From positions 1 to 64,000 of the forward strand of contig CAWFJJ010000005.1 in the NCBI GenBank assembly GCA_963816185.1: a DNA stretch of 64,000 nt, in the 5' to 3' direction. Numbering within the stretch: the first letter of the stretch is position 1; each line of letters opens with the position of its first letter. This DNA comes from Thermoanaerobaculia bacterium (lineage in GTDB: Bacteria > Acidobacteriota > Thermoanaerobaculia > UBA5066). A program made the position numbers and the translations under genes. Below, one piece after another: positions 2,380-25,137 of this stretch. A model generated the notes under the pieces. It did no database searches, was not told where the DNA came from, and saw nothing but the letters and a program-made list of their open reading frames with translations.

Positions 2380-2464
2380 AATTCCGAGGGGCATTTTTGC
2401 CACCTCGCGCGACCGCGTTTGTTGATTGCAGAGGGGTTTACGGCGTGAAAAGCGTGGGAGTGTC

Positions 2465-5600: not shown

Positions 5601-5746
5601 ATCCTGCCTCCCTTGCATTTGCTTGTTCTAGGACGCAGTCTCGATCAACTCCCTGTGAGTCCACAACCCCAAATGCTCCAGTCGCAGACTCAATAAATGG
5701 TCCGCCATGGGAATCCGCCTTTCGGCGGAGAAAGCGGAGATTTGTT

Positions 5747-6112: not shown

Positions 6113-6157
6113 AAACTTTCTCCTGTGAAATCGTAAGAGAATTGCAACGAAATCGAA

Positions 6158-6198
6158 ACCCTTCAAAGTTGGAGGCGGCGATCCTACTTTTGGGGGAG
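6158..6198. promoter_or_regulatory. possible NarL-type regulator boxes
   Basis: Two imperfect palindromes, CCCTTCAAAGTTGGAGG and TCCTACTTTTGGGGGA, just downstream of the NarL-type gene. Confidence 0.3.
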
Positions 6199-6199
6199 A

Positions 6200-9800: not shown

Positions 9801-9862
9801 ACGGCACTCAACGATGCGCTGGCCGACAGAAGAAATAGGATGAGGCCTGGAAGCGTTTTCAT
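6816..9862 (-). CDS. sensor histidine kinase: beta-propeller repeats + Y_Y_Y + HisKA_3/HATPase (two frameshifts)
   Basis: Three ORFs (8384..9862, 7177..8424, 6816..7145) join: DGYLWFGT repeats, ERTRIARDLHDTLLQ, NAFRHS..DNGRG..GLRGIRERA. Confidence 0.85.
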
Positions 9863-9883
9863 GCCTATGGGAGCTCAGGTCAA

Positions 9884-10993
9884 CTAGGGCAAGAATTCAA
9901 AGTGATCCACGACAACCTCAGCACGATGTTGAATCGTCGGCAATTTACGATTCGGGTCGGAGTAGGCGAAAAGGGCCATCCGCACAGATTCATCCACCGG
10001 TCTGGGAACCTCGTCCGTAAAGACATGCCTGGAAATGAGGCGGGTTTCCTTCCCCGACAGTTGCTCGGTGAGCATGGTGACCCGTCCCTCTTCCCAGACG
10101 ATTGTGTGTCGCAGTTTGCCGCCCGGTGCCTTGAATCGCGACATGTTCAGCGGTAGAAAAGCCGGTTGGACTACATACTGCGCATTCTCGTTTACGTTCT
10201 GCGGGTCACCCCAACGACTGATATTGATATCGAACTCACCGTGACTTCCCTGATTTGACGAATGATCCCAGGTGAAGATTTCGAAAAAGGCTGCCGGGTC
10301 CAAATTCGAAGTATCTTCCACCGTGAACAGATAGGTGCCGTAACCCAAGCTACGCGTCACATTAACCTCGGAACAGGTCCATTGGTTGTTGCGGTTGACA
10401 ATCTGTAGATGAAGCGCTCCGGATTGATCGACATAAACGTTGTTGTGATCGTAAGGGTTCCTTGTTCCTCCTCGGTCGCTGGATACTTTTCGAACCCGCC
10501 ACTGGAATCCGCTGAAATTTACAAAAAAGGACGAGGATCGTTCCTGCCCGGGGCTGGCGGCGACCCTCTCTATCCCGTGCCCAACCTTCGGCAACTCGGT
10601 CAGTACTGCCGCTGGATGGTAGCTCGAATCCACCAGTAAAGCGGCGTAGTCGGTGGCAAGGTGCACCTCGTTTCGCCAGACACCGTCTGGCAAAATTGGT
10701 GTGAAAGGAGAATTCAATCGCGGTTGCAGCCACCACAAGCCTCCGGTCTTGGAATAAACGACCATATTCTGGCCCGGACGTGACCCACTCACGGTGCCCT
10801 CAATCACATCTTCCTGATTCAGATCCCCGAGATCCCATTGCGGCACTTGGGTAAACAAAATTGTCGATTCGATGGAGGGTTGCGCTGCCTTATGACAAGC
10901 CGTCAGCAACAATAACAATCCCGCGATCGTCAGAATCGCATTGGGACGCAGTCCTGTACCGTGCTCGAATTCACCCCAGACATTGTGGAGCAA
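9884..10993 (-). CDS. lipoprotein with a GH16/ConA-like C-terminal domain
   Basis: Lipobox LLTAC; LGYGTY..GEFDINISRWG. Confidence 0.6.
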   Translation of the reverse strand: MLHNVWGEFEHGTGLRPNAILTIAGLLLLLTACHKAAQPSIESTILFTQVPQWDLGDLNQEDVIEGTVSGSRPGQNMVVYSKTGGLWWLQPRLNSPFTPILPDGVWRNEVHLATDYAALLVDSSYHPAAVLTELPKVGHGIERVAASPGQERSSSFFVNFSGFQWRVRKVSSDRGGTRNPYDHNNVYVDQSGALHLQIVNRNNQWTCSEVNVTRSLGYGTYLFTVEDTSNLDPAAFFEIFTWDHSSNQGSHGEFDINISRWGDPQNVNENAQYVVQPAFLPLNMSRFKAPGGKLRHTIVWEEGRVTMLTEQLSGKETRLISRHVFTDEVPRPVDESVRMALFAYSDPNRKLPTIQHRAEVVVDHFEFLP

Positions 10994-11159
10994 TTGAATC
11001 CCTCCCGATCCCTTCCTGGCGGTATCAGTGCGTTCGGAACTAGCGCAGAGAGCGGTTGCAGTCAGAGAGCATAGCTGATCTGGCAGGATCGGGGCTAGCG
11101 GACGACCATTCCTGTCTCTTCGGTTGTGGCGACATCAATTGGCAGCGAACGCTCGGAAC

Positions 11160-11366
11160 CTATCTTTCTTTGACTTTCTGCGCCAGCTCGCGAAAGTCTT
11201 TGGCTTGTTGGTGACTGACCTTCGCTTGGATCTGCGCGAGCTGTCGAGATTTCTCATTGGGGAGGTGCGAAACCAAAGCTTCAAGTTCGGTCGCCGCCTC
11301 GTAGGCCTGGTCAGCCTCTTTGAGCATCAAATGTTCAAACTTCCGGACTGCCTCATTGTGATCCAT
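11160..11366 (-). CDS. small helical hypothetical protein
   Basis: RBS GAGGAGGG before MDHNEAVRKFEHL. Confidence 0.6.
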   Translation of the reverse strand: MDHNEAVRKFEHLMLKEADQAYEAATELEALVSHLPNEKSRQLAQIQAKVSHQQAKDFRELAQKVKER

Positions 11367-11875
11367 GTTTCCCTCCTCATGAAAGTTTGGCGGAGACGAA
11401 AAATGTAATATCGCGATTTGACCATCGCTGTCTTCCTCGTTCGAACATACTTCCACTAGTCGAAAGCTCCTCACAGACAATTGCAATTAGGCCAGAAGCG
11501 CGGCCAACGAGTCTATTAGACGAAGGTATCGATCGACAATTTTACACCGCAGGCGCGATCAGGTGCAGGCAAGCGGGAGAGCGTGCTTTTGCCGACGGGA
11601 TTTTTTACTATCAGACTGCACGGTCTGAAATAAATCGCCTATCTGACTGCTTGATACACCTTCCTAGGCATACAGGAACGGCCGCTCTCTGTGGCTTCTC
11701 CAGAAGTAGGCGAGGATGATCACACTTACAACTGCCGCGTACGTACACCATAACGAGGTGAACGCGTATCGCTTGACCTCCATTACAACCAGCAGTTCGC
11801 GGTGGCTGAGAAGCAGATCGTCGGTCTTTCGGAACGCAAAACAACGGACCAACCGATGTTGGGGGTAGGCGCGGT

Positions 11876-12499
11876 TCAACGCTTCTGGTAGGGGTGGAAG
11901 ATGTAGTCTTTCGCTTTCACTGCCGTGTGGCACGCGTGTCCGCAGTCCGAGAGGCTTTTGGGATCGGGCGTAAACTTGTCCGAGGCGGCATCGTAGTTGA
12001 ACACCGCGTATCCCCAGCCACCGCTGTTCGGAAATCTCTTGCTGTCCTTTTCAATGACGAAAGCCTCAGCGAAAGACGTCCGGCACATCCACAACAAAAG
12101 GGGCCTCCGTGCTCTTCTTCGGCTTCCACTGGAGCTTCACGATCATGGAGCCATCGGGGAATGCCTGGCCGTTGACGGGAATACCGGCTTTATACGCTTT
12201 GATCATCGTCGGATTGGCGACGATCACCTTGAGCCTTTCGTCGGTTCGGGAGGAAGAGACGACAGCCCAATCCTCGTATCCCCGGAAGTCGGAGAACGCG
12301 ATTCCGCCGGGCGATTTCAGCGAGTACTTATCATTGTCCTTGCCTTGCGCGTAAAGGGCCACGGCGCCAAGGACGGCGAGCGCTGCCGCGGCTGTTGCAA
12401 CGATGGTAAAGCCGGCGATACGCTGCACAGCGGTGCGGTTTTCTATCTTCTGTTCCTGTTGTTCTTGCGCGCACAACTTTCGTCACAAGCTCAGACATG
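11876..12499 (-). CDS. cytochrome P460-family protein (frameshift ~12070)
   Basis: FPDGSMIVKLQW, EKDSKRFP..GGWGYA..F, C-terminal CGHACHT..KDYIF. Confidence 0.8.
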
Positions 12500-12584
12500 G
12501 TGTGTTCTCCTTCACAAAGTTTCCCGATCCCGATCGACGTGCATCTCGAACGGCTGCCATTAGGCCAGACGTGGAGGAGCAAGA

Positions 12585-12746
12585 CAATTGGACGATGGTA
12601 TCGACGATACCTTCGTATCGGGAGGGTATGACGAGCCTTCCTTATTTTGGATCGATCTTCAGTGCTAATCGGATGGAGCTGCATGCCTCAGGCATGAAGA
12701 GCACTGCACTCGATACATAAGGGTGGGCAATACCATCGTCCAATTG
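12585..12746. promoter_or_regulatory. perfect 17-bp inverted pair of operator-like boxes in a divergent promoter region
   Basis: CAATTGGACGATGGTAT (12585-12601) and ATACCATCGTCCAATTG (12730-12746); a variant lies at 11513-11529. Confidence 0.6.
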
Positions 12747-12962
12747 CGCGACCCCATTGAGTTCTGGCTGAATGCTGACAGACTTTATTTCGTCGAGTGG
12801 TTTATAGCACGCGGGCGAGAATTTCGGATCGATGTTCTAAGTTGCTGAAATTGTCGGGCGTCCTGTGTGCATTTGCTGCGACGAATGAACGACAAACGGC
12901 AATGGCTATCGTCGGTTTTAATCAACCGGTTTTCGAGGCCAAGTAATACGGAGAAAAATCCC

Positions 12963-13868
12963 ATGGCAACTATGAGCGTACCTGCCAGTCTCACACAGAT
13001 GAACCCACCTACGAAACCGGCACAGATTCGCGTGGCCCGGCGGTCGCCCGCCTATTGGCGTGTCACGGTCGACAACCCGCCCATCAACGTCATGGGCCCG
13101 GAAATGGTCAAGCAGTTCCAAGAAGTCATCGCTGCACTCGAGGCCGACGAGGATGTCAGGGTCGTGGTCTTCGACAGCGCAGTCGATGACTACTTCCTGA
13201 ATCACTCCGACTTCACGGCCAAGCTTGAGGAACTGACCGCGCTGCCTCCGGGTCCCACAGGCTTGCCTCCTTGGCCGGACTTTCTCGTGCGTCTGACCCG
13301 ATTGCCAGTCGCATCCATCGCCCTCATCCGCGGCCGCGCGACCGGCAACGGCAGCGAGATCACGCTGGCCTGCGACATGAGTTTTGCCAGTCGCGAGAAG
13401 GCCATCATCTCGCAATGGGAGGTGGGCGTGGGGATGGTCGCCGGCGGCGGCCCAATGGCTCGCCTGCCCCGGCTCATCGGCCGAAACCGCGCGCTCGAGG
13501 TGCTCTTAAGTTCGGAAGACATCCGAGCAGACCAGGCCGAGGCCTACGGCTACATCAATCGCGCTCTGCCCGACGCCGACCTGGATGAGTTTGTAGAGGC
13601 GCTCGCGAGCCGGATTGCCAAGTTCGACAAATGGGCGATCGCGCAGACCAAGCGCCTCGTCAACACCAGCCTGCCGCCGGACGTTGAGCTCGGCGCCGGG
13701 TGGGATGCGTGCATCGCATCGCTCGGGCGACCCGCTGCTCAGGAGGGGATCAAGGAGCTGATGGCGCGCGGGCTTCCACAAGCCGGGGGATGTCGAAAAT
13801 CGGCTCGGATACTACCTGGGCCAAATCGCGCGCTAGGCGAGCGGGACTCGGGACATTCGTATTTGTAA
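12963..13868 (+). CDS. enoyl-CoA hydratase/isomerase family protein (C-terminal frameshift)
   Basis: DNPPIN, GRATGNGSEITLACDM, GRNRALE. Confidence 0.85.
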   Translation: MATMSVPASLTQMNPPTKPAQIRVARRSPAYWRVTVDNPPINVMGPEMVKQFQEVIAALEADEDVRVVVFDSAVDDYFLNHSDFTAKLEELTALPPGPTGLPPWPDFLVRLTRLPVASIALIRGRATGNGSEITLACDMSFASREKAIISQWEVGVGMVAGGGPMARLPRLIGRNRALEVLLSSEDIRADQAEAYGYINRALPDADLDEFVEALASRIAKFDKWAIAQTKRLVNTSLPPDVELGAGWDACIASLGRPAAQEGIKELMARGLPQAGGCRKSARILPGPNRALGERDSGHSYL

Positions 13869-13895
13869 TGAGCACTGTATCGAAAGGAGCCATCA

Positions 13896-14341
13896 ATGAA
13901 CGCCGTACAAGTCGAACAGAAGAGCTATGAGATGCCCCCGCGCGAGGGGATCAGCATCGCGCATTTTCTCACCGTCGCCGACGTCGAGCGATCGGCTCGC
14001 TACTACGAAAAGGTCTTCGGCGCTCGCATTCTGACCATGGGTGACGGCAACGCGCCTCCGTACCTTCAGCTTGCGAATATCTGGATGATTCTGAACGTTG
14101 GGGGCGGGCCGACCCCGGATAAGCCGACGGTAACGCTCAGCGTCCCCGACCCGAATCACATCAACAGCTTTATGAATTTCCGCGTTGCGGATATTCAAGC
14201 GTGCTACGAATTATGGAAAAGTCGAGGAGCGGAGTTCATCACGCAGCCGATACCCAAGTACGGCGAGATTCGCTGCTACATCCGCGATCCTGACGGTTAC
14301 ATTATCGAGGTCGGACAGAGCACCGATCTCAGTACGGTTAA
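13896..14341 (+). CDS. VOC/glyoxalase family protein
   Basis: LTVADVERSARYY..IRDPDGYIIEVGQ. The true stop is probably TAA ~14339 after a 1-nt indel. Confidence 0.85.
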
Positions 14342-14483
14342 CGCTTCGGCGCGGATGAGGATGCCGACTCTGCGCTTCAGATCGTCGCGGCTTCTGCCAA
14401 TCTTGCCTTGAACAGTCACTCGCTCTGACATCGAAAGGAGTACCAGATGGATCGGCACAAATGGACTGAAAGAGACCACGCGC

Positions 14484-15337
14484 GTGACCGCGCCTGTCGC
14501 GTCGAACACGCTGAGTGTGAACGTTTTTACGGCTCCGGGAAAGACTATGGTCGGCGAGCGGCCAAAGCCCTTCGGCGAAGCGCTCGGCTTTGACCCGATC
14601 ACGTCGACTTTAATCTTCGGCGAGTACGACGCGGTGCTGGTGGACGCAATGGGGACGGTGGCTGAGGCCGAGGCTCTCGCGGATTGGGTCGCTCTGCACA
14701 ACCGCAACCTGGAGACCATCTATATAACGCACGCCCATTTCGACCACTTCTACGGTCTGAGCATTCTGCTCGACCGTTTCCCGGGCGCTCGGGCGATAGC
14801 AACGCCCAAGGCGGTGAACGCCATGCAGATGTCTTTCACTCCCGCAGTGGAGCGGCTGGCCCGCCGGATGTTTCCTGGGCAAGTGGCCACCAAGTTGGTT
14901 CCACCTGAGCCCTATGAGCACGACACGTTCACTCTCGAGGGCCACGAATTGCGCATCATCGAGCAGGGCCGCACCGATAGTCCCGATTCGACGTCTCTCT
15001 ACGTTCCATCGATCGGCCTGATCGTCGCTGGCGACGTTGTGTACAACCAATGCCGCATGTACGTCGGCGACACCACCCCCGAGAGCCGAAAGAATTGGAT
15101 CGCGGCGCTGGACCGGTTAGCGGCGCTGAACCCGGCGATTGTTGTCGCCGGTCACAAGAAGCCTGGCGCGCCCGACTCTCCCTCGACGATCCAGGACACC
15201 AAGCGTTACCTCAGGACTTCGATCGGGTGCAGAAAACCGCGACGTCCGACCAGGAGCTGTTCGATCAGATGACGGAGCTGTACCCGCATTGGGTAGCCAA
15301 TCAGTCGTGGTTGATGTTCGGATTCCCCGGAGCATAA
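14484..15337 (+). CDS. MBL-fold metallohydrolase (frameshift ~15210)
   Basis: THAHFDH, AGDVVYN and AGH motifs. Confidence 0.85.
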
Positions 15338-15445
15338 CTCACATCAACCGCGGTAGCCGGTCCTTGCGCACTTTGGAGGAAGCCGCGGACGATGAGCTAG
15401 CTCATATTCAGGAGAACAGAATTCGATTTCAAAGAGGAGAACAAA

Positions 15446-16258
15446 ATGACAACAAAAGGAAAAGTCTTGGTGCTAGTCTCGAGCGGTCACGGCTTGCCCT
15501 TGAAAGATGGCAAGGTTTATGCCGGCGCTGGCTACTATCTCAACGAGCTGACGGTTCCGGTTCGCGCCCTGATGAAGGAGGGCTACGAAATCACTTTCGC
15601 CAACCCCAAAGGCAACACGCCGCAAATGGATGTCCATTCAGCTGTAGCCGATTTCTTCGGTGGGGACGAGGCTAAGCTTCAGGACTATCTAAAATTCCGC
15701 GACACCCTGACTGGGCTCAAAAATCCAACTCGTATCTCGGATGTCATCGCATCGGGCCTGGATCAATATGACGCTGTTTTCGTCCCCGGCGGCCATGGCC
15801 CGATGATGGATCTTCTCGATGATCCCGACGCGGGCACCGTGATGAGACACTTTCATGAAACATCCAAGCCTACGGCAGTGCTCTGCCATGGCCCGATTTC
15901 ACTTCTCTCGGCGCTTCCGAATTCGACGGAGGTGGTCGCCGCGCTGGCGGCGGGCGATGCCGCTGGAGCACACGCAAAGGCTCAAGGCTGGATCTATTCC
16001 GGATATAAGATGACCATCTTTTCGACAGCGGAAGAGCAGCAGCGGGAGCCGCTTGAGATTGGTGGTAAGGTTCTCTTCTACCCGGACTTCGCCTTGCGTA
16101 CTGCGGGCGGTGACGTAAGTGTGGTCGCTCCATGGAAGAGCTACGTCCTTCAAGATCGCGAGTTGATCTCAGGTCAGAACCCGTTCTCGGACGAAGCGCT
16201 TCTGAAACTTCTTCTACCGGCACTCGATGGGAAGAAGAAGTCGGTTTCAGCGGCATAA
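15446..16258 (+). CDS. DJ-1/PfpI (type 1 glutamine amidotransferase-like) protein
   Basis: GYYLNEL, PGGHGPM, LCHGP and SGQNPFS motifs. Confidence 0.88.
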   Translation: MTTKGKVLVLVSSGHGLPLKDGKVYAGAGYYLNELTVPVRALMKEGYEITFANPKGNTPQMDVHSAVADFFGGDEAKLQDYLKFRDTLTGLKNPTRISDVIASGLDQYDAVFVPGGHGPMMDLLDDPDAGTVMRHFHETSKPTAVLCHGPISLLSALPNSTEVVAALAAGDAAGAHAKAQGWIYSGYKMTIFSTAEEQQREPLEIGGKVLFYPDFALRTAGGDVSVVAPWKSYVLQDRELISGQNPFSDEALLKLLLPALDGKKKSVSAA

Positions 16259-16336
16259 GAATCGGGGACGCCCATCGTTTACACGACGCATGTTGCCATG
16301 CCTTCGCCAGTCGAAGTCCGAGAGAAGGAATTGCCG

Positions 16337-17223
16337 ATGAATCCCGTGGCATTATCGCACCATACAGGTCGATGGCCTGTCGATTTTCTATCGAGAGGCT
16401 GGGCCGAAAAATGCGGAAACACTTCTACTGCTGCACGGACTTCCATCGTCGTCGCGGATGTTCGAGCCGCTTTTCGCACGGCTATCGGATCGCTACCATC
16501 TGATAGCGCCTGATTATCCCGGATTCGGACACAGTGACTGGCCGGACCCGAAGAAATTCGCATATACGTTCGATCATTTCGCCGAGATCATGGACCATTT
16601 CACCGAGGCGCTGGGACTCTCGCGTTACACCGTTATATATGCAGGACTACGGTGGCCCCGTCGGCTTTCGCATGGCTCTGGCGCATCCGGAGCGAGTCGA
16701 GGCGCTGATCGTGCAGGACGCCGTCGCCCACAACGAAGGCCTGGGAGCAAATTGGAAAACACGCCGGGCATTCTGGGCTGATCGCGCTGCCAATGAGAGC
16801 GCATTGCGCACCAATCTCTTGTCGCTCGAGGCCGCGCGCGCGCGACACGTCGGAAACGATCCCGACGTGGAGCGCCACGATCCCGACCTCTGGACCGACG
16901 AGTTTTATTTTCTGAATCGGCCCGGCCAGGCCGAGATCCAGAGCGATCTTTTCTACGACTACCGAACCAATGTGGAGTCTTATCCGAAGTGGCAGGCCTG
17001 GATGCGCGAAAAACAACCGCGGCTGCTCGTGATCTGGGGCAAATACGAAACATCGTTTGACCCGAGCGAGCCGGAGAGCTATCGCAAGGATGTTCCGAAC
17101 GCCGAAGTCCACATTGTCGACGGTGGCCATTTCGCCCTGGACACGGCTGCCGATGAGATTGCTGCCTTGGTGAAAGGCTTTATGGCGTCTTCCCCGGAGG
17201 TGAGGGCTCGGCGTGCTGGTTGA
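16337..17223 (+). CDS. alpha/beta hydrolase (frameshifted)
   Basis: IFYREAG..LLHGLPSS..APDYPGFGHS..QDYGGPVG..GHFAL. Confidence 0.8.
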
Positions 17224-17308
17224 GATGATCGATCATGCGGAGACTGTTCAAGTTGTGCCGGGAGTCAGATTAATCGGTACGGTATCAACGGAATAGGAGC
17301 CGACATCA

Positions 17309-17575
17309 ATGAGCGGCATACAAATCGAACAAAACGAGCTATGAGATGCCCCCCGCGCGAAGGATTCACCATCACACTTTTTATCACCGTCGCCGACATC
17401 AACCGAGCGGCTGATTTCTATGAAAAGGTGTTCGGCGGCCGCATTCTGAGCAGAGGCGATAGCAAGGGCGCGTCCGGGCACATTCAGATCGCGAATACCT
17501 GGCTGATTGATCAACGTCGGGGTCGGGCCCACGCCGGACAAGCCGACGGTAACGCTCAGCGTCCCCGAACTTCGA
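17309..17575 (+). pseudogene. truncated paralog of the VOC gene at 13896
   Basis: Shares EMPPREG..YEKVFGGRIL..GPTPDKPTVTLSVP with the first copy, then stops. Confidence 0.7.
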
Positions 17576-17679
17576 AGGCATCTTCACAGATGTTTCCGAG
17601 CGCTGTCGATATACGATGCGGCCGGAAACGCCTGCGGTCTAAAGGAAGCGGTTCATCTGCTGCCTACCCTATAACGGGT

Positions 17680-18033
17680 CTAGTTTAGAAGCGATTCCCA
17701 GTTGGCCGGCACCCTGCCTGCGGGTCCAGGTGCGGGCTGACTTTCGGGATGCGCGTGCGGCGGAAGCAATTCCAGACCCTTGATCATCCCCTGCTTCTCG
17801 TAATCGAAGAACCAATCCTCACCCGGCTCAAAGCTGGTTATGATCGCGTGCCCTGTTTCCGCCGCATGCTTAGATGCATGCTGACTTGGAGAGCTGTCAC
17901 AGCATCCGATGTGGCCACACTCCGCACACCGGCGGAGATGAAACCACCAACCTTTCGGTGACGCCAGGCATTCAACACATCCGTTTCCGCTTGGTTTCGA
18001 AGCGGCGTTGATTCCGCGCCGGTCTCTTCTCAT
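17680..18033 (-). CDS. UBP-type zinc finger protein
   Basis: CVEC..HLRRCAECGHIGCCDSSPSQHASKH..SFEPGEDW. Confidence 0.85.
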   Translation of the reverse strand: MRRDRRGINAASKPSGNGCVECLASPKGWWFHLRRCAECGHIGCCDSSPSQHASKHAAETGHAIITSFEPGEDWFFDYEKQGMIKGLELLPPHAHPESQPAPGPAGRVPANWESLLN

Positions 18034-18071
18034 TTTCGATCTTCCTTTTGTTTCGCGTCCGCCAGAGAATC

Positions 18072-18780
18072 TCAAGCCACCAGCAAGATCTTCCCGACAG
18101 CACCCTTCTCTGCCTCTGCTTGAGCTTCGGCTGCTTCACTGAGCGGCAGTTTCTGGCTAATCGGGATTACCAACTTGCCATCTCGCACGGCCTCGGCCAT
18201 GAACTCGAGCGTTTTCCTGTCAAACTTCGAGAATACGAAAACCACCTTTACAGAGGGTACTGTGCCGGCGTTCTGCGGTGTCCCGACAACCGACGCATAG
18301 ACTCCTCCCGGCGTGACCTTGGCGATTAGCTTCTCGGCAGTTCTTCCGCCGACTGTATCCGCCACTGCATCGAGCGGCGGAAGATTCGCAATCGCGGAGT
18401 CGTCGTCGGTTGCGACGACCTGATCCGCGCCGACAGTGTTCGCGCTCTCGATCTGCTTGTTCAACACCCCCGCGATCACAGTCGCCCCGCGTTGTTTTGC
18501 AGTGAATACCGCTGAACGCCCGACGTTTCCAGCAGCGCCCACGACGAGAACCGTCTGGCCTGCTTTGATCCCGGTAGCGGACATGAGTTGGTTGCCGGTC
18601 ACCGTCACCAAGGGCAGCGCTGCCGCCTGGATCAAATCGAGTCCCTTGGGAACTTTCGCCAGAATGGCGGTGTTTACAGCGCAAAGTTCGGCGTAAGTAT
18701 TGTCCGCCATGGCGAATACCTGGTCGCCAACAGAAAAGCCTTCTACTCCGGGCCCAATCTTAATCACGGTTCCTGCGATG
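18072..18780 (-). pseudogene. NADP-dependent quinone oxidoreductase (MDR family), 5'-truncated
   Basis: AGTVIKIGPGV..AAALPLV..GAAGNVG..GKILL. The N-terminal part is replaced by the antisense of the rSAM gene. Confidence 0.8.
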
Positions 18781-18782
18781 GC

Positions 18783-20021
18783 GTCGTGGAAGGTTCGCGG
18801 CTCTTCTGTGTGGACCAGGATTTCTTCGCGAGGCTTCGGAGCGGCAATTCGGAGGCCGAATCGGAGATGACCACCGCCGCGGGAGAGGCGGCGCCGGCGG
18901 CGGAGTTCGCAGAGGGCTTGCCCGAACCCGCGGCCATTTCTCTCAACGTCGCCCAATCGTGCAACCTGTCGTGCTCGTACTGCTACGCCGACGAGGGACG
19001 TTTCGGGGGCAAACGGCGGCTGATGCCCCTGGATGTGGCTCTGCAGGCGATCGACCGTCTGATCGACGGCGCCGCGGGCCGGCGGGTGACGGTCGGCTTT
19101 ATCGGAGGCGAGCCGTTTCTGAACCGCGAGGTGCTTTACGAGAGCGTCGCGTACGCGGTCGAACGGGCGCGAGCGCGGGGCTGCACCGTCGGGTTCTCGG
19201 TGGCGACGAACGGGACCCTGCTCAACGCAAGCGACGTGCGCCTTCTGCGCAACGACGGCTTCGCGGTGTCGGTGAGCCTCGACGGGAATGCCCAAGTGAA
19301 CGACAGGCATCGCCGCGCGCCCGGGGGCGCCAGCGGATACGAATCGGCGCTTTCCCGCTTGCGCCCGCTCCTGGAAAGCCCGGGGAAAGCGCGCATCGCG
19401 GCGCGGATCACCGTGGCGCGAGACGACTTGCGAGTCGCCGAACGAGTGGAGGCGCTCGCCGGCGCCGGCTTCGCCGAGATCGGCGTGAGTCCCTTGCGCA
19501 CGAGCCCGGTTCCGGGCCTGGTCCTCAGAGACGAGGACTGGGCGGTATTCCTGGCGGAGATGGTGCGGGCCGCGGAACGCGAATGGCAGCGGCTGAACGA
19601 GGGCGAGGGCTTCCGCTTCTCGAATCTCGCGATCGCCGTGAAACAGCTCCACGCCGGGTTCGCCAAGCCCCTCCCGTGCGGCTCGGCAGCGAACTACGTG
19701 TCGGTGAGCGCGGAGGGCGGGTACTTCACGTGCCACCGCACGATCGACGATGCGTCGTTTTCTCTCGGAACGATCGCAGGAGGCTTGTCCACGACCCTGC
19801 GCGAGAGCTTCCTGAAGGAGAGGCACGTGGACCGGCAGGAGCCGTGCCGCAGCTGTTGGGCGCGGTACCTCTGCGGAGGCGGGTGTCACGCCGAGGTCCT
19901 TTCGGCCGGGCGCAGCGGATGCGACTACATCCGGGGGTGGCTGGAGTACTGCCTTCGGTTCTACGACCGCCTGTCGCGGGAGCGGCCGGACCTGCTCGGA
20001 GAAAGGCGGGAGGTGGCTTGA
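18783..20021 (+). CDS. radical SAM/SPASM-domain protein (thioether-forming QhpD/ranthipeptide-like); 5' end apparently truncated
   Basis: CNLSCSYC, GGEP, SLDG; SPASM motifs PCG..TCHR..CRSCWARYLCGGGCH..C. Confidence 0.88.
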   Translation, partial: VVEGSRLFCVDQDFFARLRSGNSEAESEMTTAAGEAAPAAEFAEGLPEPAAISLNVAQSCNLSCSYCYADEGRFGGKRRLMPLDVALQAIDRLIDGAAGRRVTVGFIGGEPFLNREVLYESVAYAVERARARGCTVGFSVATNGTLLNASDVRLLRNDGFAVSVSLDGNAQVNDRHRRAPGGASGYESALSRLRPLLESPGKARIAARITVARDDLRVAERVEALAGAGFAEIGVSPLRTSPVPGLVLRDEDWAVFLAEMVRAAEREWQRLNEGEGFRFSNLAIAVKQLHAGFAKPLPCGSAANYVSVSAEGGYFTCHRTIDDASFSLGTIAGGLSTTLRESFLKERHVDRQEPCRSCWARYLCGGGCHAEVLSAGRSGCDYIRGWLEYCLRFYDRLSRERPDLLGERREVA

Positions 20022-21711
20022 TGGAGAAGATCTTTCCGCTGAACCTGACGGCGCGGGCCGCCGCGATGGTGACAGGAAACCCGGCGACGACGCGCCTCGA
20101 GGGCGGAGTTGGCAATTGCTTCCCAGGCCTGGAGTACGACCACCGCAACCTCGACCGGCGCTTCTTCCCGGGGTTGGTATTCCAGTTCGGGTCCTCCCGG
20201 GGCGCGCCGCTCTTGAAAGTGGATCCGGACGATCCGGATCTCGACCCCAAGACCTTCGAGGGACTCCTGCGCGATGCTCCGGATCCCCAGGTCCAGAGCG
20301 CCTTGCGTATGGCGCTCAGCGGCGCGGACCCGGGGGTCCAGAGTGCCTTACGTGCGGCGCTCGGCGGCAATCCGGGCAAGATATTGCTGGAAGGATCGTG
20401 GTTTCTCGACTCGATCAAGCAGTCCGGCAGGACCATCGCGGTGCGTGACCTCGCCGGCCTGACGGTCTGGCGCCTCGTGCGATCTCTCGAGCCCGGGCCC
20501 CTGGAGATCGTGCTGACGCGAAGCGCCGGAACGCCGCGAAAGATCACGCTCGAGCGGCTGGCGGCGGAGATTCGTGAGCACGAAGACCGGCGTCATCAGC
20601 GAGGCCTTTCAGCCGGGAGAGCTGACGCAGAGTCTGTGCTCGCCGTGGATGCACGATTTCCGCGATTGCGCATGCACGTACTGGGCGTCGAACCACCCCG
20701 ACATCGTCCTGGTCGAGCAGCCGTCGGGAGCGGAACCGGATCCCGTGTGGGAGGAAACGCCGGTCGACTGGCTGCGCTCCGACCGCACGCTGGCCCGGAC
20801 CGCAGCGGCGGTCGGAACGGAATCGGGAAACCGCAACGCGCAGATGGATCACTACGAGATCAACGAGCGCTGGCAGGATCTTTCCGTCGTCCTTCTGGGA
20901 CACGAGATCTCCAGCGCCTTCCCGGCGCGGGAGTGCGGATGCCGCGAATCCGTTCGAGACTGCCGACGAGCTGGCGACGACGCTGGTGGGCTTGGCCACG
21001 CTCGAACACGCGGTGGCGCTCGAGTACCTGTACGCGATGTACTCCGTGATGGACCCGTCAAAGGCGGCGGGCCAGAGTCTCAAGGACGCGGTGACGTTCG
21101 TGCAGCACGAAATGCTGGTCATCGCGGTGAGCGAGATGCGGCACCTGCGCTGGGCGAACCAGCTCCTGTGGGAGCTCGAGCACGCCGGGCTCACGACGAA
21201 GCGTTTCGGGCCGTCTCTCGGCGTTGCCGCACAGGTGCCGGGCGTGAACGGGCCGCGGGCACCGCAGCTTCGAGTTCTCGATGCCGCGACGCTCGACGAC
21301 TTCATCGCGATCGAGAAGCCCAGCGGCACTCTCGACGGCGCTTACGCGCGGGTCCTGGCGACACTGAGGCGGCAACCCCCTTATCCCGCGCCTCTCGAAC
21401 AGCTGGCCGGCCGGATCCTGGCGGACGGCATGCAGCATTACACCCGGTTCCGGGAGATCAAGAGGGTCCTCGAGCCGTTCTCGGGCGGGAATCCGCCCGC
21501 ATACCTCCAGACCCTCACGAAGGCGAGCCGCACGGAGGCGAAGAAGGCAGTCGATCTCTACGCGGGGATCCTCGCGGATCTTCGGGGCGCCTACGAGTCC
21601 GGCGACATGGAAGACGCGGCGCTCATCGCCAGGGCGCGCACCGTCATGTTCGAGCTGGACGCCGCCGCCGATGCGCTTGCCACCGCCGGCAAGGGCGTAC
21701 CATTTTTCTAG
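20021..21711 (+). CDS. LodA/GoxA CTQ-motif domain fused to a ferritin-like domain (two frameshifts)
   Basis: TGATG overlap with the rSAM gene. Motifs NCFPGLE and PGELTQSLCSPWMHDFRDCACTYWASNHPD, then LEHAVALEYLYAMYS..EMRH..IEKP..DGMQH. Confidence 0.7.
20279..20368 (+). repeat. 45-bp in-frame tandem duplication
   Basis: PDPQVQSALRMALSG / ADPGVQSALRAALGG. Confidence 0.8.
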
Positions 21712-21727
21712 AGAGGAGGCCCTCCCC

Positions 21728-23242
21728 ATGAGCGCGAAGCACGGTCTTCCCTTACGCGGTCTGATGTCGACCGGGTTCTCCGCGGCCTTCGAAGGCCGAT
21801 TCGGGCGGATGTTCCGATCGCAGCGTCCCGCCGTCTTCGGAGCGACGGAGGCGGACAACCTCGCGAACCTCGCCAGACTCGGTGACGCGATGTCGAATGC
21901 GTTCGACCCCCCGAAGGACGGCAAGGACGACGAGGAAAGCGGCATCCCGGCGCTCTACACGTACTTCGGCCAGTTCGTCGATCACGACATCACGTTCGAC
22001 CCCGCCAGCAGTCTCCAGAAGCAGAACGACCCCGACGCGCTGGTGGACTTCCGTACCCCCGCGTTCGACCTGGACAACGTTTACGGGCGCGGGTCGGACG
22101 ATCAGCCCTACATGTACGACGGAGGGGACTCGTTTCTGCTCGGCGACCCCATCCAGGGCGGAGACGCGAGCGCGAGGGACCTGGCGCGCAACAGCGCCAC
22201 GCCCCGTCGCGCGCTCATCGGAGATCCGCGCAACGACGAGAACTCCATCGTCTCGCAGCTTCAGGGGCTCTTCCTGCGATTTCACAACCGCACACGAAAG
22301 GACAACCCCGGCCTCGACTTCGGCGAGGTCCAGAAGAAGGTCCGCTTCCACTATCAGTACGTCGTCCTGAACGACTTCCTGCCGCGAATCGTCGACTCCT
22401 CGGTGCTGAACGACCTGAAGTCGGCGAACCAGTACGACCGGGCCAAGATCAAATTCTTCCACTGGAAGCACCAGCCGTTCATGCCGGTCGAGTTCTCCGT
22501 CGCGGCCTACCGTCTGGGGCACTCGATGATCCGCCCCGGCTATCGCCTCAACGATTCCATCCTGCTTCCCATCTTCCCGGTCCCCTCTTCGGTCGCCCCC
22601 GGTTTCCCGGAGGGTCTCACGGGATTCCGCGCCATGAATCCCGCCTGGGGAATCGACTGGGGGCGGTTCATCGACATCGACATCCGCGACTACGACGGCA
22701 GCGACGCGGTCAAGGCCAAGCGGCTGCAGTTCGCGTACCGGATCGACACTTCGATCGTCAACCCGCTGAAGAACCTCCCGGCGGCCGTCGCGAGCAACCC
22801 GTCCTCCCTCGCGCAGCGAAATCTCGAGCGCAGCTGGCGCCTCGGCCTTCCCTCGGGGCAGGACGTCGCCCGCGCCATGGGCCTCAAGCCGCTCGATGAC
22901 AAGGACATTCTCATCGGTCAGGGCGTGGACAAGCCGGACGCACCGCTCCCGAACATCGTCGCGGCCGCCGGCCCGGTGTTCGCGAAGAACTGTCCGCTCT
23001 GGACCTACATCCTCGCGGAGGCGATGCACTTCAAGGCGCCCGTCAAGATCCCGGTCAAGAAGGCCGTCACCGTCAGCACGCCGAGGCTGGGCCCCGTCGG
23101 AGGGCGCCTCGTGGCCGAAGTCTTCCTCGGCCTCCTTTTCGGCGACAACAACTCCTTCCTGAGTCAGGCGCCGTTCTGGCAGCCCGAGAAGAAACCAGAC
23201 TATGCGCTGAAGGACTTCGTGAACTACGCCCTGGGAAGCTGA
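21728..23242 (+). CDS. heme peroxidase (peroxidase-cyclooxygenase superfamily, bacterial)
   Basis: YTYFGQFVDHDITFD, GDPRNDEN, AYRLGHSMIR, GLPSGQ, PLWTYILAEA, LGPVGGRLVAEV. Confidence 0.9.
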   Translation: MSAKHGLPLRGLMSTGFSAAFEGRFGRMFRSQRPAVFGATEADNLANLARLGDAMSNAFDPPKDGKDDEESGIPALYTYFGQFVDHDITFDPASSLQKQNDPDALVDFRTPAFDLDNVYGRGSDDQPYMYDGGDSFLLGDPIQGGDASARDLARNSATPRRALIGDPRNDENSIVSQLQGLFLRFHNRTRKDNPGLDFGEVQKKVRFHYQYVVLNDFLPRIVDSSVLNDLKSANQYDRAKIKFFHWKHQPFMPVEFSVAAYRLGHSMIRPGYRLNDSILLPIFPVPSSVAPGFPEGLTGFRAMNPAWGIDWGRFIDIDIRDYDGSDAVKAKRLQFAYRIDTSIVNPLKNLPAAVASNPSSLAQRNLERSWRLGLPSGQDVARAMGLKPLDDKDILIGQGVDKPDAPLPNIVAAAGPVFAKNCPLWTYILAEAMHFKAPVKIPVKKAVTVSTPRLGPVGGRLVAEVFLGLLFGDNNSFLSQAPFWQPEKKPDYALKDFVNYALGS

Positions 23243-23267
23243 AGGAGTCGTCCTGGGGCCAAAACGA

Positions 23268-23304
23268 AATACCGGACATCGGTCAGAACCCGATGTCCGG
23301 TATT
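23268..23304. terminator. hairpin between convergent genes, probably a bidirectional terminator
   Basis: 15-bp perfect stem AATACCGGACATCGG/CCGATGTCCGGTATT. Confidence 0.7.
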
Positions 23305-23326
23305 CAATGCACTCAGCCAGAACCGC

Positions 23327-24822
23327 TCAATGCGGCTTCAGGTGTCCGGGCGCAGACGGCTTGCCATGCCCATGCGGCTCCGACCCCGCGATCGCGGACG
23401 TGCCATCGCCCGGCGAGACGAGCTGGATCAGGTAATCGACGAGTCCGTCGGCCCTCGGGGAACCGAGACCCGTCGCGGCGTCCCAGCCCGGTCCGGCATT
23501 GAAGCCCAGCACATCAGGAAGAACGGAGTTATTGCCGCTCGTCACGTCGAAGAAAGAAGCTGTGTAGTGTTTCTGTGCCTGGCCGATATGGTAGGCCGCC
23601 TTGTTGATGAAGCCGAGGCCGTATCCGGCTTTCTGGTCGGCAATCGCCTGGATGGCCGCCCACTGCGGCGAGCCGGCGCTCGTGCCGCCGAAGAGATACA
23701 TACCGGCCGGGATTCCCGGGATGTTGAGGTACGTCAGCACACCATGGAGGACGGCGGCGCTGTACGACACATCCGGTTCTCCCCGATGCTTGCCGCCATG
23801 GATCGTTCCCTGCTGGTACGAGGGCTCGTCGTACAGGACACTGAATCCGCCCCCGGTGGCGCCGATGCCAAGGGATACTTCGTTCCACACAATCTCGCCC
23901 TGATAGGTTCCCGGAGCCGGGTTCGCGGTCGGATCGCAGCCAAGGGACGCCAGGCAATAGCGAGCCGCGTGCAGCTCGGTACCGCCCACGGCGGTGACCA
24001 GCGGGTCAGCTGGCAGGCGAGGAGGCGGCTTTGACGAGCGATGAGCCGTCGCACGACGGCTGGCCTGCGCCGTCATCACCGGCGGAGGCGAAGAGCGTGA
24101 TGTTCTTCCTGGTGGCGTCCGCGAACACCTGATGTTGCATCGCGAGCGTGTTCGGGTCCATGCAGCTCTCGTTCTCGCCGAAGCTCTGGGAGATGACGTT
24201 GCCGTTGACGTCGCCGAGGTTGTTATCCACCGCGTACTTCGTGGCGCTCAGGATGTCGGCGTCGATCGTTCGATTTTGCGAGGACGAGCACGATGTTGGC
24301 GCCGGGGGCGATCGCGTGCGCCCACAGGACGTCCAGCGAGATCTCCTCGGCCCACCCGGTCATGTTGGAATCACCGATGATAAACGGCGTCAGGCCGTCC
24401 GGCGCGATCTGCGTGAACGTGCCGAGGCTGGGGTTGGGCGGGCCGCCGAGCCCGTTCAGGCTGGGCAGACCGTAAAAGCTGTTGTAGAAATTCAGCTGCT
24501 GCACGATGTTCGGAGACTGGAAGGCGTCGACGATGACGATCGTCTTTCCCCTGCCGTCGAGGCCCGCGTTGACGAGCGTGTCGATGTTGTAGGCATGCCG
24601 CATCTGATAGGGGTCGTAACAGGTGGTACCTGGGTTGAGGCCGAGGACCTGGCAGGTGAACAGGCCATAGTCCGGGCTAGCGGCAGCGGCCGGGATTGCC
24701 TGCGGGCCAACCTTGAGGAACGGCGATACGGAGGAGCGCACGTTGGCTGCGCTGCCGGGCGTTGCCACGAGGCCGATCATCAAGGCGACTGCGAAAAGGG
24801 AGAGAACCTTACGGGTCTTCAT
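23327..24822 (-). CDS. S53 sedolisin-family peptidase, secreted (two frameshifts)
   Basis: Signal peptide; EISLDV, SQSFG, ASAGDDG, GGTSAGSP and WDAATGLGSP motifs. Confidence 0.85.
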
Positions 24823-25137
24823 GTGTACCCTTTCTTCTGGAGCAAGATGTTCGTCAATACTGTTGGTTTACGCGCGCGTGGATACCCTAGACAACGAAGA
24901 AAAGCTCGATTAGCACCTCCATAGAACGATAAGAACCGAATCTGACCCACAGGGTTCACGGGACTGCGACGAGGATGGGCACCTCGACCCGTCCGGGTGT
25001 TCCGGCCCGGAGTCTTAGTTGAGATCCGGTCTCTGTCAAGGGCGAGAGGCCCCTCAATGCCCCTCCAGAGAGGGCGAGGAATTCAGAATCCCCGCGCTCG
25101 CGGAGAGGAGCAGGTTCTTCTAGCATCCGGGGTCATC

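Follow-up and report, generated by a model that had tools for sequence, protein, structure and literature searches.

Organization of the locus and state of its assembly

The window, by which we mean the whole 64,000-nucleotide stretch of Thermoanaerobaculia contig C5 that was analysed, carries on its plus strand a truncated gene for a QhpD-like radical-SAM/SPASM enzyme (rSAM), a gene that we call FAM2, and a gene for a protein resembling animal haem peroxidases (Table 1). The rSAM stop codon overlaps the FAM2 start codon by one base. The original prediction had treated 20021..21711 as one stretch encoding a minimal LodA-like CTQ site fused to a ferritin-like domain; an ORF and translation check finds three reading frames there and not one, split by two single-base insertions that the prediction did not mention. 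The peptides it quoted are all present in the window's translations, spread over these three frames, with NCFPGLE at 20114-20134 in frame A and PGELTQSLCSPWMHDFRDCACTYWASNHPD at 20613-20702 in frame B.

Table 1. Features of the cassette region, in window coordinates
Feature	Position	Strand	Remarks
Assembly misjoin	18762..18782	.	Foreign DNA of lower G+C on the left, cassette on the right
Radical-SAM/SPASM maturase, QhpD-like	18783..20021	+	Codons 1-31 missing through contig misjoin
FAM2 part 1	20021..20553	+	Frame A, residues 1 to ~178; N-terminal segment with NCFPGLE and PDZ-like insert
Frameshift site 1	20552..20554	+	One surplus base in the window; absent from X1, X2 and X3 contigs
FAM2 part 2	20555..20932	+	Frame B; candidate quinone-site motif PGELTQSLCSPWMHDFRDCACTYWASNHPD, then conserved DWLRSDR and HYEINxRW
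Frameshift site 2	20933..20934	+	One surplus base in the window; absent from X1, X2 and X3 contigs
FAM2 part 3	20934..21711	+	Frame C; ferritin-like helical bundle, putative ligands E, ExxH, E, (D/E)xxxH
Animal-haem-peroxidase-like gene	21671..23242	+	Pfam An_peroxidase, E 2.2e-15

Contigs nearly identical to the window exist in three public runs (X1, X2 and X3, one contig each per frameshift site; a fourth run, X4, has no cover at either). They hold one base fewer both at 20552/20554 and at 20933/20934, and apart from this the two X1 contigs over the sites show 0 and 1 letters of difference from the window. Since both surplus bases are missing from the contigs of these runs, the two frame breaks were most likely introduced by this assembly, and the gene in nature is most likely whole. 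Intact FAM2 homologues are single ORFs of 546-600 amino acids that read ...L[SDKN]GWRRRF... without interruption at the first site; the 547-residue homologue P0001 is 91% identical over the fragment queried. Two frame changes within 1.7 kb, neither of them in a homopolymer, might also be expected of a true pseudogene or of a gene that uses programmed frameshifting. We consider either quite unlikely in view of the public contigs, of the adjoining minus-strand ORF set, which carries surplus bases of the same kind, and of the conserved residues, every one of which is intact across the three frames.

The truncation of the rSAM gene has a different origin. To the left of position 18782 an alcohol-dehydrogenase gene on the minus strand lacks its 5' end, and the G+C content is 0.563 on that side and 0.690 on the right (0.62-0.69 for whole contigs of this genome). 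The X2 and X3 contigs match the window solely from 18782 onward. Homology to the rSAM of a second locus, L003, begins at window position 18783 with L003 residue 32 (77% identity over 406 amino acids), and the start of another contig of the same genome, C6, encodes rSAM residues 1-31 together with FAM1, a LodA-like protein, and a flavoprotein. The upstream continuation of the X3 contig resembles the start of C6, with 27 of 29 letters alike after a one-letter slide. Contig C5 is misjoined near 18782, and C6 carries the missing half of the cassette.

A conserved four-gene cassette

Counts of loci rest on 80 listed loci out of 227 stretches that encode a FAM2 relative. Of the 80, 67 contain the full set of FAM1, FAM2, a QhpD-like rSAM and a QhpG/LodB-like flavoprotein; nine of the remaining 13 loci hold less than 11 kb, and several of those nine end at a contig edge. 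In many cassette loci successive genes overlap by 1 or 4 bases at their start and stop codons. An rSAM of this kind adjoins the family gene in 77 loci. That of the window finds its best NCBIfam match in quino_hemo_SAM (QhpD), at 243.6 bits and below the cut-off of 453, followed by the thioether maturases PapB and SCIFF; the rSAM of the Bradyrhizobium locus L035 reaches 309.1 bits, also below 453. A flavoprotein gene was found in 67-68 of the loci and on contig C6. At E<=1e-5 all 68 flavoproteins match QhpG, 62 match LodB and 61 match GoxB; the L035 protein scores 298.3 bits, above the QhpG cut-off of 240, and that of L003, which has the window's type of cassette, scores 95 bits, far below it.

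A SPASM rSAM, a flavoprotein and the BBE-type oxidase that proteobacterial loci also hold together have the look of a RiPP cluster. FAM2 might on this ground be a scaffold or precursor rather than an enzyme subunit, its modified Cys/Trp loop being excised to give a small quinone product in the manner of PQQ or a RiPP. We regard this reading as very improbable: no conserved protease or exporter was found among the 80 loci, where ABC-transporter genes are merely sporadic, and some 1100 residues of strongly conserved, enzyme-related fold would make an odd precursor.

Other neighbours in the window were considered as parts of the system and set aside. The peroxidase gene has a homologue in just 4 of the 80 loci and is a lineage-specific neighbour outside the conserved core, and the minus-strand ORF set, peptidase-like as judged by eye alone, has a match in 1 of 80. 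Two minus-strand fragments gave no Pfam match at E<=0.1.

FAM1, a separate LodA-like body

The original prediction called the LodA-like site minimal and the large N-terminal region of LodA absent. That region is in fact encoded by a separate neighbouring gene, FAM1, which is present in 73 of the 80 loci and lies here at the start of C6. The FAM1 profile, searched against all PDB chains, retrieved 9 GoxA sequences (E 0.0045-0.0059), 2 LodA sequences (E ~1.1) and nothing else, and among the top Foldseek matches listed for the FAM1 model, which start at E 2.9e-8, every one is GoxA or LodA. Against an alignment of 25 canonical LodA/GoxA proteins, hhalign gave Prob 94.5 and E 7.6e-8 over 239 columns. 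With LodA and GoxA (PDB 2ymw, 3weu, 6byw) FAM1 shares both the fold and the N-terminal motifs 'PP.a.aR.G' and 'DD.CD...PPD[FY]AP'. Pfam LodA_N recognizes FAM1 weakly (E<=1 for 20 of the 42 members, with a best value of 2.3e-4), and NCBIfam GoxA (NF038173) gives it 18.5 bits against a cut-off of 750.

LodA and GoxA are single chains, whereas the corresponding parts are encoded here by two genes, which are naturally fused in some genomes. In one such fusion, P0128 (1197 amino acids), FAM1 occupies residues 13-576 (Prob 100, E 1.5e-135), and further along the chain come the site motif (799-923) and the ferritin-like domain (944-1062). FAM1 and FAM2 are two halves of one unit. When FAM1 was modelled together with FAM2 residues 1-300, the predicted complex scored 0.87 and the best control 0.00; of 80 solved complexes 58 attained that mark, and of 110 mismatched pairs 2 did. 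Separate runs agreed in at least 69% of their contacts, with a partner pLDDT of at least 70, and the FAM2 segments that are unfolded in the AF2 monomer (1-38 and 187-288) fall at the predicted FAM1 interface. Resemblance to LodA and GoxA, whose single-chain structures are solved, may account for this score, which would then not be independent evidence of binding.

A compressed, putative quinone-site motif in FAM2

Among 50 aligned FAM2 sequences, whose overall identity is as low as 38%, the site motif is invariant: every one of the 50 has C33, C191, W194, H196, D197, D200, C201, C203, Y205, W206, H210, P211, D212, W235 and W269. Judged from this alignment, such conservation is far beyond chance. 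The original prediction held that the catalytic-type Asp, Cys and Trp are retained, and D197, C201 and W206 are unchanged in all 50 sequences. FAM2 shares with LodA/GoxA the site motifs PW..D...C and [FY]W....P, and differs from them in having two extra invariant cysteines, a PDZ-like insert and a C-terminal ferritin-like domain. It had also been noted that Cys and Trp stand only 5 residues apart; C201 and W206 do, against 16 in the canonical LodA/GoxA alignment. The conserved Asp of the LodA site we take to be Asp512. The cofactor residues of LodA itself, C516 and W581, are 65 apart (PMC4417212, section 7).

The direct sequence signal from FAM2 to LodA is weak. Pfam LodA_C (PF18417) gives 24.1 bits to the window fragment, over profile positions 110-144 and just below its cut-off of 25, and 21.3 bits to P0001; it matches all 42 FAM2 members scanned at E<=1 (best 3.3e-5), and one of them, from Sulfitobacter, exceeds the cut-off with 25.8 bits over profile positions 62-145. 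Of the two profile matches that the original prediction proposed as a check, the one to Ferritin-like was clear (49.7 bits against a cut-off of 22.3) and the one to LodA_C thus fell narrowly short. NCBIfam LodA (NF038172) gives the FAM2 fragment 11.9 bits against 600, and the window's copy lies below the curated LodA, GoxA and Pfam cut-offs. When FAM2 was aligned by hhalign with the 25 canonical proteins, the D-x3-C elements coincided and W206 was placed on the invariant Trp across an 11-residue gap, in a match that is itself weak (E 0.0073, Prob 5.3, 38 columns). Kinship with the Asp-x3-Cys ... Trp site of LodA/GoxA is in agreement with this placement, in which D197, C201 and W206 align with canonical D482, C486 and W502 at low statistical support. 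This alignment-against-alignment run supersedes one of the FAM2 profile against a single canonical LodA-like sequence (Prob 1.7, E 0.028), which had no gap at the Trp. NCFPGLE, originally read as a match to the LodA motif FxPGxE, was aligned with it by none of the profile methods.

In the PDB the full FAM2 profile found no LodA or GoxA chain and only bacterioferritin (E 0.023) and the IL-16 PDZ domain (E 1.7), and phmmer searches of PDB sequences with P0001 and with the window's frame-B fragment gave no match at E<=10. In the AF2 monomer residues 40-180 are modelled confidently, their nearest fold being a PDZ domain (weakly: 6bxg_A, E 0.096, TM 0.56 on the target), and pLDDT is below 50 at residues 1-38 and 187-288, which leaves the site without a confident model. 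No signal peptide is evident on FAM2 by eye.

Four invariant cysteines and two invariant histidines in a region that AF2 cannot fold alone, together with the weak profile link to the LodA site, would also suit a protein in which C33, C191, C201 and C203 ligate a metal ion or an iron-sulfur cluster, possibly with help from H196 or H210, the quinone having been lost and the rSAM and flavoprotein serving another task. We think this unlikely. In alignment the D-x3-C ... [FY]W..x.P motif falls on the canonical quinone site, the adjoining flavoproteins match known Trp-hydroxylating maturases in the proportions given above, and P0245, a single-chain relative that lacks the ferritin-like domain, keeps C191, C201 and C203 and has Ala in place of C33.

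The fused ferritin-like domain

The original prediction of a ferritin-like helical bundle is borne out by the Pfam model (PF12902, the bit score quoted above), by fold and by a full set of putative ligands. Foldseek matches the C-terminal domain of FAM2 to 3hl1_B, the ferritin-like protein CC_0557 (E 8.8e-5). All 50 sequences have E313, E356, H359, E419 and H459, with D (41) or E (9) at residue 455, and in the window the ligand motifs are LEHAVALEYLY from 21001, AVSEMRHLRW at 21124-21153, FIAIEKPSG at 21301-21327 and ILADGMQHYTRF at 21415-21450. The fused domain probably binds two metal ions. The C-terminal 260 residues of FAM2 are like the PF12902 family represented by CC_0557 (PDB 3hl1) in both Pfam model and fold, and FAM2 differs from that family in the fusion of the domain to a LodA-like quinone-site module. 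VioB, which holds a stretch related to PF12902, is weakly matched by 21 of 50 FAM2 members. We know of no function for the PF12902 family, and membership in it therefore leaves the role of the domain unexplained.

Combinations of this general kind have precedents. Catalase-like (pfam00199) and iron-redox (pfam14518) domains have been described as fusions to LodA-like proteins, and PF12902 genes as neighbours of fungal lodA/lodB-like genes (PMC4417212, sections 6 and 7, with the fungal genes in section 6); like the present family, both cases pair a LodA-like oxidase with a metal or haem redox module. Unlike FAM2, those are single-chain canonical LodA-like proteins with an N-terminal fusion or a separate ferritin-like gene.

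The fungal neighbours, and the fusion of the ferritin-like domain in nearly all members with its ligands invariant, lend some weight to the idea that FAM2 is a self-contained minimal CTQ module, with no LodA-like body, whose own diiron domain acts in cis on the Trp, by hydroxylation or oxidation. This is improbable in our estimate, given that FAM1 is present in most loci, forms a single protein with FAM2 in some genomes and is its predicted binding partner, and that P0245 has the same site without any ferritin-like domain. Trp oxidation in cis by the diiron domain, as originally suggested, is also less needed, because a flavoprotein of a known Trp-hydroxylating maturase type is encoded in nearly all the loci (67-68 of 80). 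The metal domain may still have a part in the last oxidation step.

Likeness to QHNDH and a proposed route of maturation

To our knowledge only two CTQ systems have been characterised. QHNDH is periplasmic and is matured by a radical-SAM enzyme and QhpG, LodA/GoxA by a flavoprotein alone. The present cassette joins features of both and adds a ferritin-like metal domain and split genes. As beside LodA and GoxA, the gene next to the family is that of a LodB/GoxB-related flavoprotein; unlike in those systems, a radical-SAM/SPASM partner is nearly always adjacent. Canonical LodA/GoxA proteins need no rSAM so far as we know, and the rSAM could for that reason have a role here other than thioether maturation. 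The main text of PMC4417212 makes no mention of a radical-SAM partner, and the word 'radical' is absent from it.

The same pair of maturase types is co-encoded with QHNDH, and the best matches here point to that system: QhpG for the flavoprotein in all three copies shown in detail, and QhpD, among named families, for the rSAM. Two of the cross-links in QhpC are Cys27-Asp33 and Cys7-Glu16. QhpD makes three Cys-to-Asp/Glu thioethers in QhpC and QhpG dihydroxylates its Trp43; the CTQ is formed by Cys37 and Trp43, a thioether joins Cys41 to Asp49, and Asp33 is the conserved Asp (PMC7876137). The QhpC spacings D33-C37 (+4) and W43-D49 (+6), taken from the same source, recur in FAM2 as D197-C201 (+4) and W206-D212 (+6). 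Both proteins have a loop rich in Cys and Asp in which Trp follows Cys at a distance of 5-6 residues, and the FAM2 loop, which AF2 leaves unfolded without partners, is in this respect much like the mostly-coil QhpC. QhpC is a peptide of ~80 residues with a leader, whereas the FAM2 site lies inside a protein of ~550. Homology to QhpC by sequence was considered and rejected, as QH_gamma matches are not significant (E 0.07 for the fragment from the window, and E 0.27 for the one full-length member out of 50 that matches), and we keep the likeness as an analogy of residue spacing alone. Within the clusters of conserved neighbours that were surveyed, no gene for QhpA (haem), QhpB, the QhpE protease or the QhpF exporter was seen. 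The suggestion that the extra cysteines might be thioether donors for an rSAM sits well with the thioether-type radical-SAM/SPASM gene that adjoins the family in 77 of 80 loci.

We think it likely that FAM2 is the C-terminal subunit of a split LodA/GoxA-like tryptophylquinone enzyme with a hybrid, QHNDH-like maturation, the frameshifts in the window being assembly errors. FAM2 would then begin with LodA C-terminal active-site segments, continue with an inserted PDZ-like domain and a compressed quinone site (Asp197-x3-Cys201, with Trp206 five residues after the Cys, and the clade-specific Cys191 and Cys203 plus Asp212) and end in the fused ferritin-like domain, with FAM1 predicted to wrap around the otherwise unfolded parts. 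In maturation, Cys-to-Asp/Glu thioethers around the site would be the work of the QhpD-like enzyme and the hydroxylation of Trp206 that of the QhpG/LodB-like flavoprotein; a link between Trp206 and Cys201 would then complete CTQ. We infer that the mature enzyme would most likely oxidise primary amines, and that the ferritin-like domain is likelier to handle O2, H2O2 or electrons, or to complete cofactor oxidation, than to be the sole Trp hydroxylase. We put forward only tentatively, as possible and somewhat doubtful in its entirety, a fuller picture in which CTQ would sit in an rSAM-installed thioether cage within the two-subunit LodA-like enzyme and be wired to the fused diiron site, which might take up its electrons or complete its oxidation.

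The cassette points to a new route for building a protein-derived quinone cofactor, and to a predicted new family of amine-oxidising enzymes. If our reading is true, this would be a third tryptophylquinone-enzyme architecture, in which the LodA and QHNDH routes of biogenesis are combined, and a rare SPASM radical-SAM enzyme acting on a full-size protein. It would also offer a case for the evolution of quinone sites, the Cys-Trp spacing having shrunk from 16-65 residues to 5. The cassette bears on whether SPASM enzymes cross-link large proteins, a subject for which experimental validation has been called limited (PMC13692751).

Distribution of the family

A full-text literature search, with subscription journals mostly outside its reach, returned no paper describing the cassette. 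The frame-B fragment has no copy in 40 relatives of this genome, so the gene is patchy in its lineage. The family itself is large: 996 of 1339 candidate proteins reach E<=0.01, phmmer found 327 representatives (50% clustering) at E<=0.001, and the 227 stretches that encode relatives come from 280 candidates in a collection of one genome per species. Besides many metagenome-assembled genomes, the 80 listed loci include cultivable Paraburkholderia, Bradyrhizobium, Sulfitobacter and Amazonocrinis.

A probable subunit of a split LodA-like enzyme

The gene FAM2 had been put forward in the original prediction as encoding a minimal LodA-like site fused to a ferritin-like domain. This core idea proved largely right, but the gene does not stand alone; its product is a subunit of a larger LodA-like enzyme that is split between genes and accompanied by a conserved maturation cassette of hybrid type, and whose cofactor chemistry we infer. 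The enzyme is homologous to LodA and GoxA, its site is invariant, its genes form a four-gene cassette, and natural fusions of its two halves exist. On FAM2, Pfam's Ferritin-like profile scores 49.7 bits (cut-off 22.3) and LodA_C scores 24.1 bits (cut-off 25; profile positions 110-144); a Sulfitobacter FAM2 exceeds the LodA_C cut-off (25.8 bits, positions 62-145), and 42/42 members of a FAM2 alignment match both profiles at E<=1. The AF2 model of the homologue P0001 (mean pLDDT 75.7) is confident at residues 40-180 and 290-547, and its most conserved parts, residues 1-38 and 187-288, have pLDDT below 50. In Foldseek searches the FAM2 C-terminal domain matches the ferritin-like protein 3hl1 (E 8.8e-5) and the middle domain matches PDZ domains weakly (E about 0.1); the P0001 model gave no LodA or GoxA match, as expected because the site is not modelled.

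The large N-terminal region of LodA, which had been thought absent, is encoded separately by FAM1. In a search of all PDB sequences, the sole matches of the FAM1 profile are to GoxA (9 distinct sequences, E 0.0045-0.0059) and to LodA (2 sequences, E about 1.1), aligning flPPmaiaRlG with IYPPLGIARVG and VDDtCD...PPDFAPDrRP with FDDICDG...PPDYAPQIEP. The FAM1 AF2 model (mean pLDDT 77.8) has 50 Foldseek matches at E<=0.001, and GoxA and LodA account for all 18 top entries listed, the best at E 2.9e-8. Against a canonical set of 25 proteins named LodA/GoxA family CTQ-dependent oxidase by NCBI, hhalign gives Prob 94.5 and E 7.6e-8 over 239 columns. The two halves are joined in the natural fusion P0128 (1197 aa), whose residues 13-576 match FAM1 (Prob 100) and which has the motif at 799-923 and then PF12902 at 944-1062. 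P0162, P0171 and P0200 resemble it in length (all four 1110-1201 aa) and carry the C-terminal motif and ferritin-like domain, the comparison with the FAM1 profile covering P0128 among these four. The ferritin-like domain is missing from P0245, a single chain of 723 aa, which retains ...SLCAPWQNDYRECACFYWAANRPD... and the short Cys-x-Cys-x2-Trp site.

When FAM1 and residues 1-300 of FAM2 are modelled as a complex, the score is 0.87 (best control 0.00), a level reached by 58/80 solved complexes and 2/110 mismatched pairs; the runs share at least 69% of contacts, with partner pLDDT of at least 70. The predicted interface includes FAM2 residues 16-42, 183-194, 208-214 and 248-287, segments that are unfolded in the monomer. 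Since LodA and GoxA were solved as single chains, the score may rest on likeness to them; the model shows the proteins behaving as halves of one fold, and says nothing of binding in the cell.

The putative cofactor site

Conservation was counted in a 50-sequence alignment with identities down to 38%. Kept in all 50 are C33, P35, G36, E38 and D40; C191, W194, H196, D197, D200, C201, C203, Y205, W206, H210, P211 and D212; W235 and W269; and the ferritin ligands E313, E356, H359, E419 and H459, while position 455 is D in 41 and E in 9. The expected retention of the Asp, Cys and Trp is thereby borne out by D197, C201 and W206, as is the Cys-Trp distance of 5 residues (C201 to W206), and the Pfam score, the 3hl1 match and the kept ligands uphold the ferritin-like helical bundle. 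In the canonical set D482-x3-C486 and W502 are invariant, with a Cys-Trp spacing of 16 residues. When FAM2 is aligned with that set by hhalign, PGELTQSLCSPW.HDFRDC.C.Y falls on pGGITRWMAvPWQTDTASCRSGY and, past an 11-residue gap, WASNHPDIV falls on WPARVPNqV (E 0.0073, Prob 5.3, 38 columns). By itself this sequence alignment is no more than suggestive; it becomes convincing in combination with the FAM1-LodA evidence.

FAM2 differs from the canonical proteins in C191, C203 and D212, to which they have no counterpart (the aligned positions are Ala, a gap and Asn); these three residues accompany the clade that has the QhpD-like radical-SAM/SPASM gene (rSAM). In QhpC, as described in sections of PMC7876137, CTQ is formed by Cys37 and Trp43, Cys41 and Asp49 are joined by a thioether, and Asp33 is the conserved Asp. 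By those positions the D-to-C (+4) and W-to-D (+6) offsets are identical in QhpC and FAM2, whereas C-to-W is +5 in FAM2 and +6 in QhpC and inner-Cys-to-Asp is +9 and +8, respectively. The QH_gamma profile match to FAM2 is not significant.

A widespread four-gene cassette

With a fragment of FAM2 (frame B) as query, 996 longer proteins at E<=0.01 were found among 1339 candidates, and most of the listed matches are 546-600 aa long with PF12902; among 50%-clustered representatives 327 match at E<=0.001, 152 of them reaching 1e-10. In a species-genome collection 227/280 candidate stretches were confirmed, spread over Acidobacteriota, Cyanobacteria, Alpha-, Beta- and Gammaproteobacteria, Actinomycetota, Myxococcota, Planctomycetota and others; no copy of the fragment was found in 40 relatives of the window's genome. 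The only labels that family members bear in the source databases are "ferritin-like domain-containing protein", "Ferritin-like" and "hypothetical protein".

By tblastn with the window's rSAM, a homologue adjoins the family gene in 77/80 loci, and the remaining three are cut by contig ends. Clustering of all ORFs of these loci followed by profile searches yielded a core of FAM1 (about 540-600 aa), FAM2, rSAM and a QhpG/LodB-like flavoprotein gene; all four are present in 67/80 loci, and 9 of the 13 others are under 11 kb, several ending at a contig end. The genes come in two arrangements. One, seen in Acidobacteriota, Cyanobacteria and some others, runs flavoprotein (minus strand), FAM1, rSAM, FAM2; the other, that of most Proteobacteria, runs BBE-type oxidase, FAM1, FAM2, rSAM, flavoprotein and then a minus-strand cyclase/AAA regulator. 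Start/stop overlaps of 1 or 4 bases are frequent among cassette genes. The top NCBIfam match of rSAM is QhpD (243.6 and 309.1 bits, below the cut-off of 453). QhpG is matched at E<=1e-5 by 68/68 flavoproteins, the window genome's own copy included, of which 62 also match LodB and 61 GoxB; a Bradyrhizobium flavoprotein lies above the QhpG cut-off and a Terriglobia one below it.

The copy in the window

Translation of window 20018-21732 in three plus-strand frames recovered every peptide that had been reported for FAM2, but spread over all three frames, so that the single ORF proposed at 20021-21711 does not exist as such. Both frame junctions are uninterrupted in intact homologues such as P0001 (547 aa, 91% identity over the queried fragment), and the DNA at neither is a homopolymer. 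We aligned contigs of four public runs (X1-X4) to window 18000-24900; X4 covers neither frameshift site. The X1, X2 and X3 contigs, a single one from each of these runs at either site, lack one window base at 20552/20554 and one at 20933/20934, and the two X1 contigs over these sites otherwise differ from the window by 0 and 1 letters. The frameshifts are therefore read as errors of this assembly, most likely the sole cause of the break in the window's copy. The same kind of extra base occurs in a minus-strand ORF set further downstream, where public contigs lack one base at 23289, 24010 and 24264/5, which suggests that single-base insertions are scattered through this assembly.

Features of the window, of contig C6 of the same genome and of related loci
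Feature	Sequence	Position	Strand	Remark
MEKIFPL...NCFPGLE...TPRKITLE	window	frame of 20021	+	FAM2 translation
...GWRRRFVSTKTGVISEAFQPGELTQSLCSPWMHDFRDCACTYWASNHPD...SAFPARE	window	next frame after that of 20021	+	FAM2 translation
...ADAANPFETADELATTLVGLATLEHAVALEYLY...GVPFF*	window	third frame	+	FAM2 translation
Misjoin	window	18762-18782		5'-truncated alcohol-dehydrogenase gene (-) abuts 5'-truncated rSAM gene
FAM1	C6	159-1754	-	
Flavoprotein gene	C6	1832-2968	+	
Small zf-UBP zinc-finger protein gene	window	17680-18075	-	Pfam E 5.5e-12
Animal-haem-peroxidase-like gene	window	21671-23242		Pfam E 2.2e-15; directly after FAM2, nominally overlapping its end
Secreted-looking ORF set	window	23327-24822	-	three frames; peptidase-like by eye only
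BBE/FAD_binding_4 oxidase gene	L048	4666-6219		example
Large regulator gene	L067	7629-10910		example
Canonical oxidase and LodB-like genes	L024 / L085	about 1-3521 / 41-3006		Paraburkholderia fungorum

The window's rSAM ORF matches the rSAM of the related locus L003 only from L003 residue 32, at window 18783, and the start of C6, read in reverse, encodes the missing residues, ending ...LVEGERPLVF. The X2 and X3 contigs agree with the window only from 18782 onward; upstream of it the X3 contig is C6-like (27/29 letters agree after a shift of one position). The DNA to the left of the junction has a G+C of 0.563 and that to the right 0.690, with 0.62-0.69 in whole contigs of the genome. The window's contig is thus chimeric, its left 18.8 kb (1-18782) being foreign to this place, and the true gene order, which runs from C6 into the window, is flavoprotein (minus strand), FAM1, rSAM, FAM2. 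The zinc-finger gene listed in the table lies within the foreign part.

Possible maturation and role

By analogy with QhpD acting on QhpC, rSAM would cross-link Cys191 and Cys203 to Asp/Glu side chains. The flavoprotein would hydroxylate Trp206, Cys201 would add to the Trp206 ring to give CTQ, and FAM1 and FAM2 together would make an amine-oxidising enzyme. Trp hydroxylation need not involve the ferritin-like domain. According to a 2015 LodA-like gene survey (PMC4417212), fusions of LodA-like proteins with catalase-like or iron-redox domains are frequent, and in fungi PF12902 genes lie next to lodA-like genes; because of these parallels, handling of peroxide, O2 or electrons by the ferritin-like domain appears about as likely as a part in finishing cofactor oxidation. 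Our full-text literature search turned up neither a LodA-like protein described as having a radical-SAM partner nor a split, ferritin-fused form; radical-SAM enzymes go unmentioned in the main text of the survey (PMC4417212), and few thioether cross-links have been validated on large proteins, according to the abstract of PMC13692751.

Other neighbours

Among the 80 loci, tblastn found the minus-strand ORF set in 1 and a homologue of the window's peroxidase near the cassette in 4, three of these from Acidobacteriota. Neither of two fragments scanned from the ORF set has a Pfam match at E<=0.1. In 31 loci, mostly proteobacterial (L035-L079 type), a BBE/FAD_binding_4 oxidase gene flanks the cassette; 31 loci contain a gene for a large regulator that combines SAM-domain, adenylate-cyclase and AAA_16 parts. 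In L052, L032, L049 and L066 the FAM genes or the rSAM gene are split over several ORFs, possibly as decayed copies or through further assembly errors. In Paraburkholderia fungorum, the split-LodA cassette has immediately upstream of it the genes for a canonical LodA/GoxA-family oxidase (625 aa) and its LodB-like protein (363 aa).
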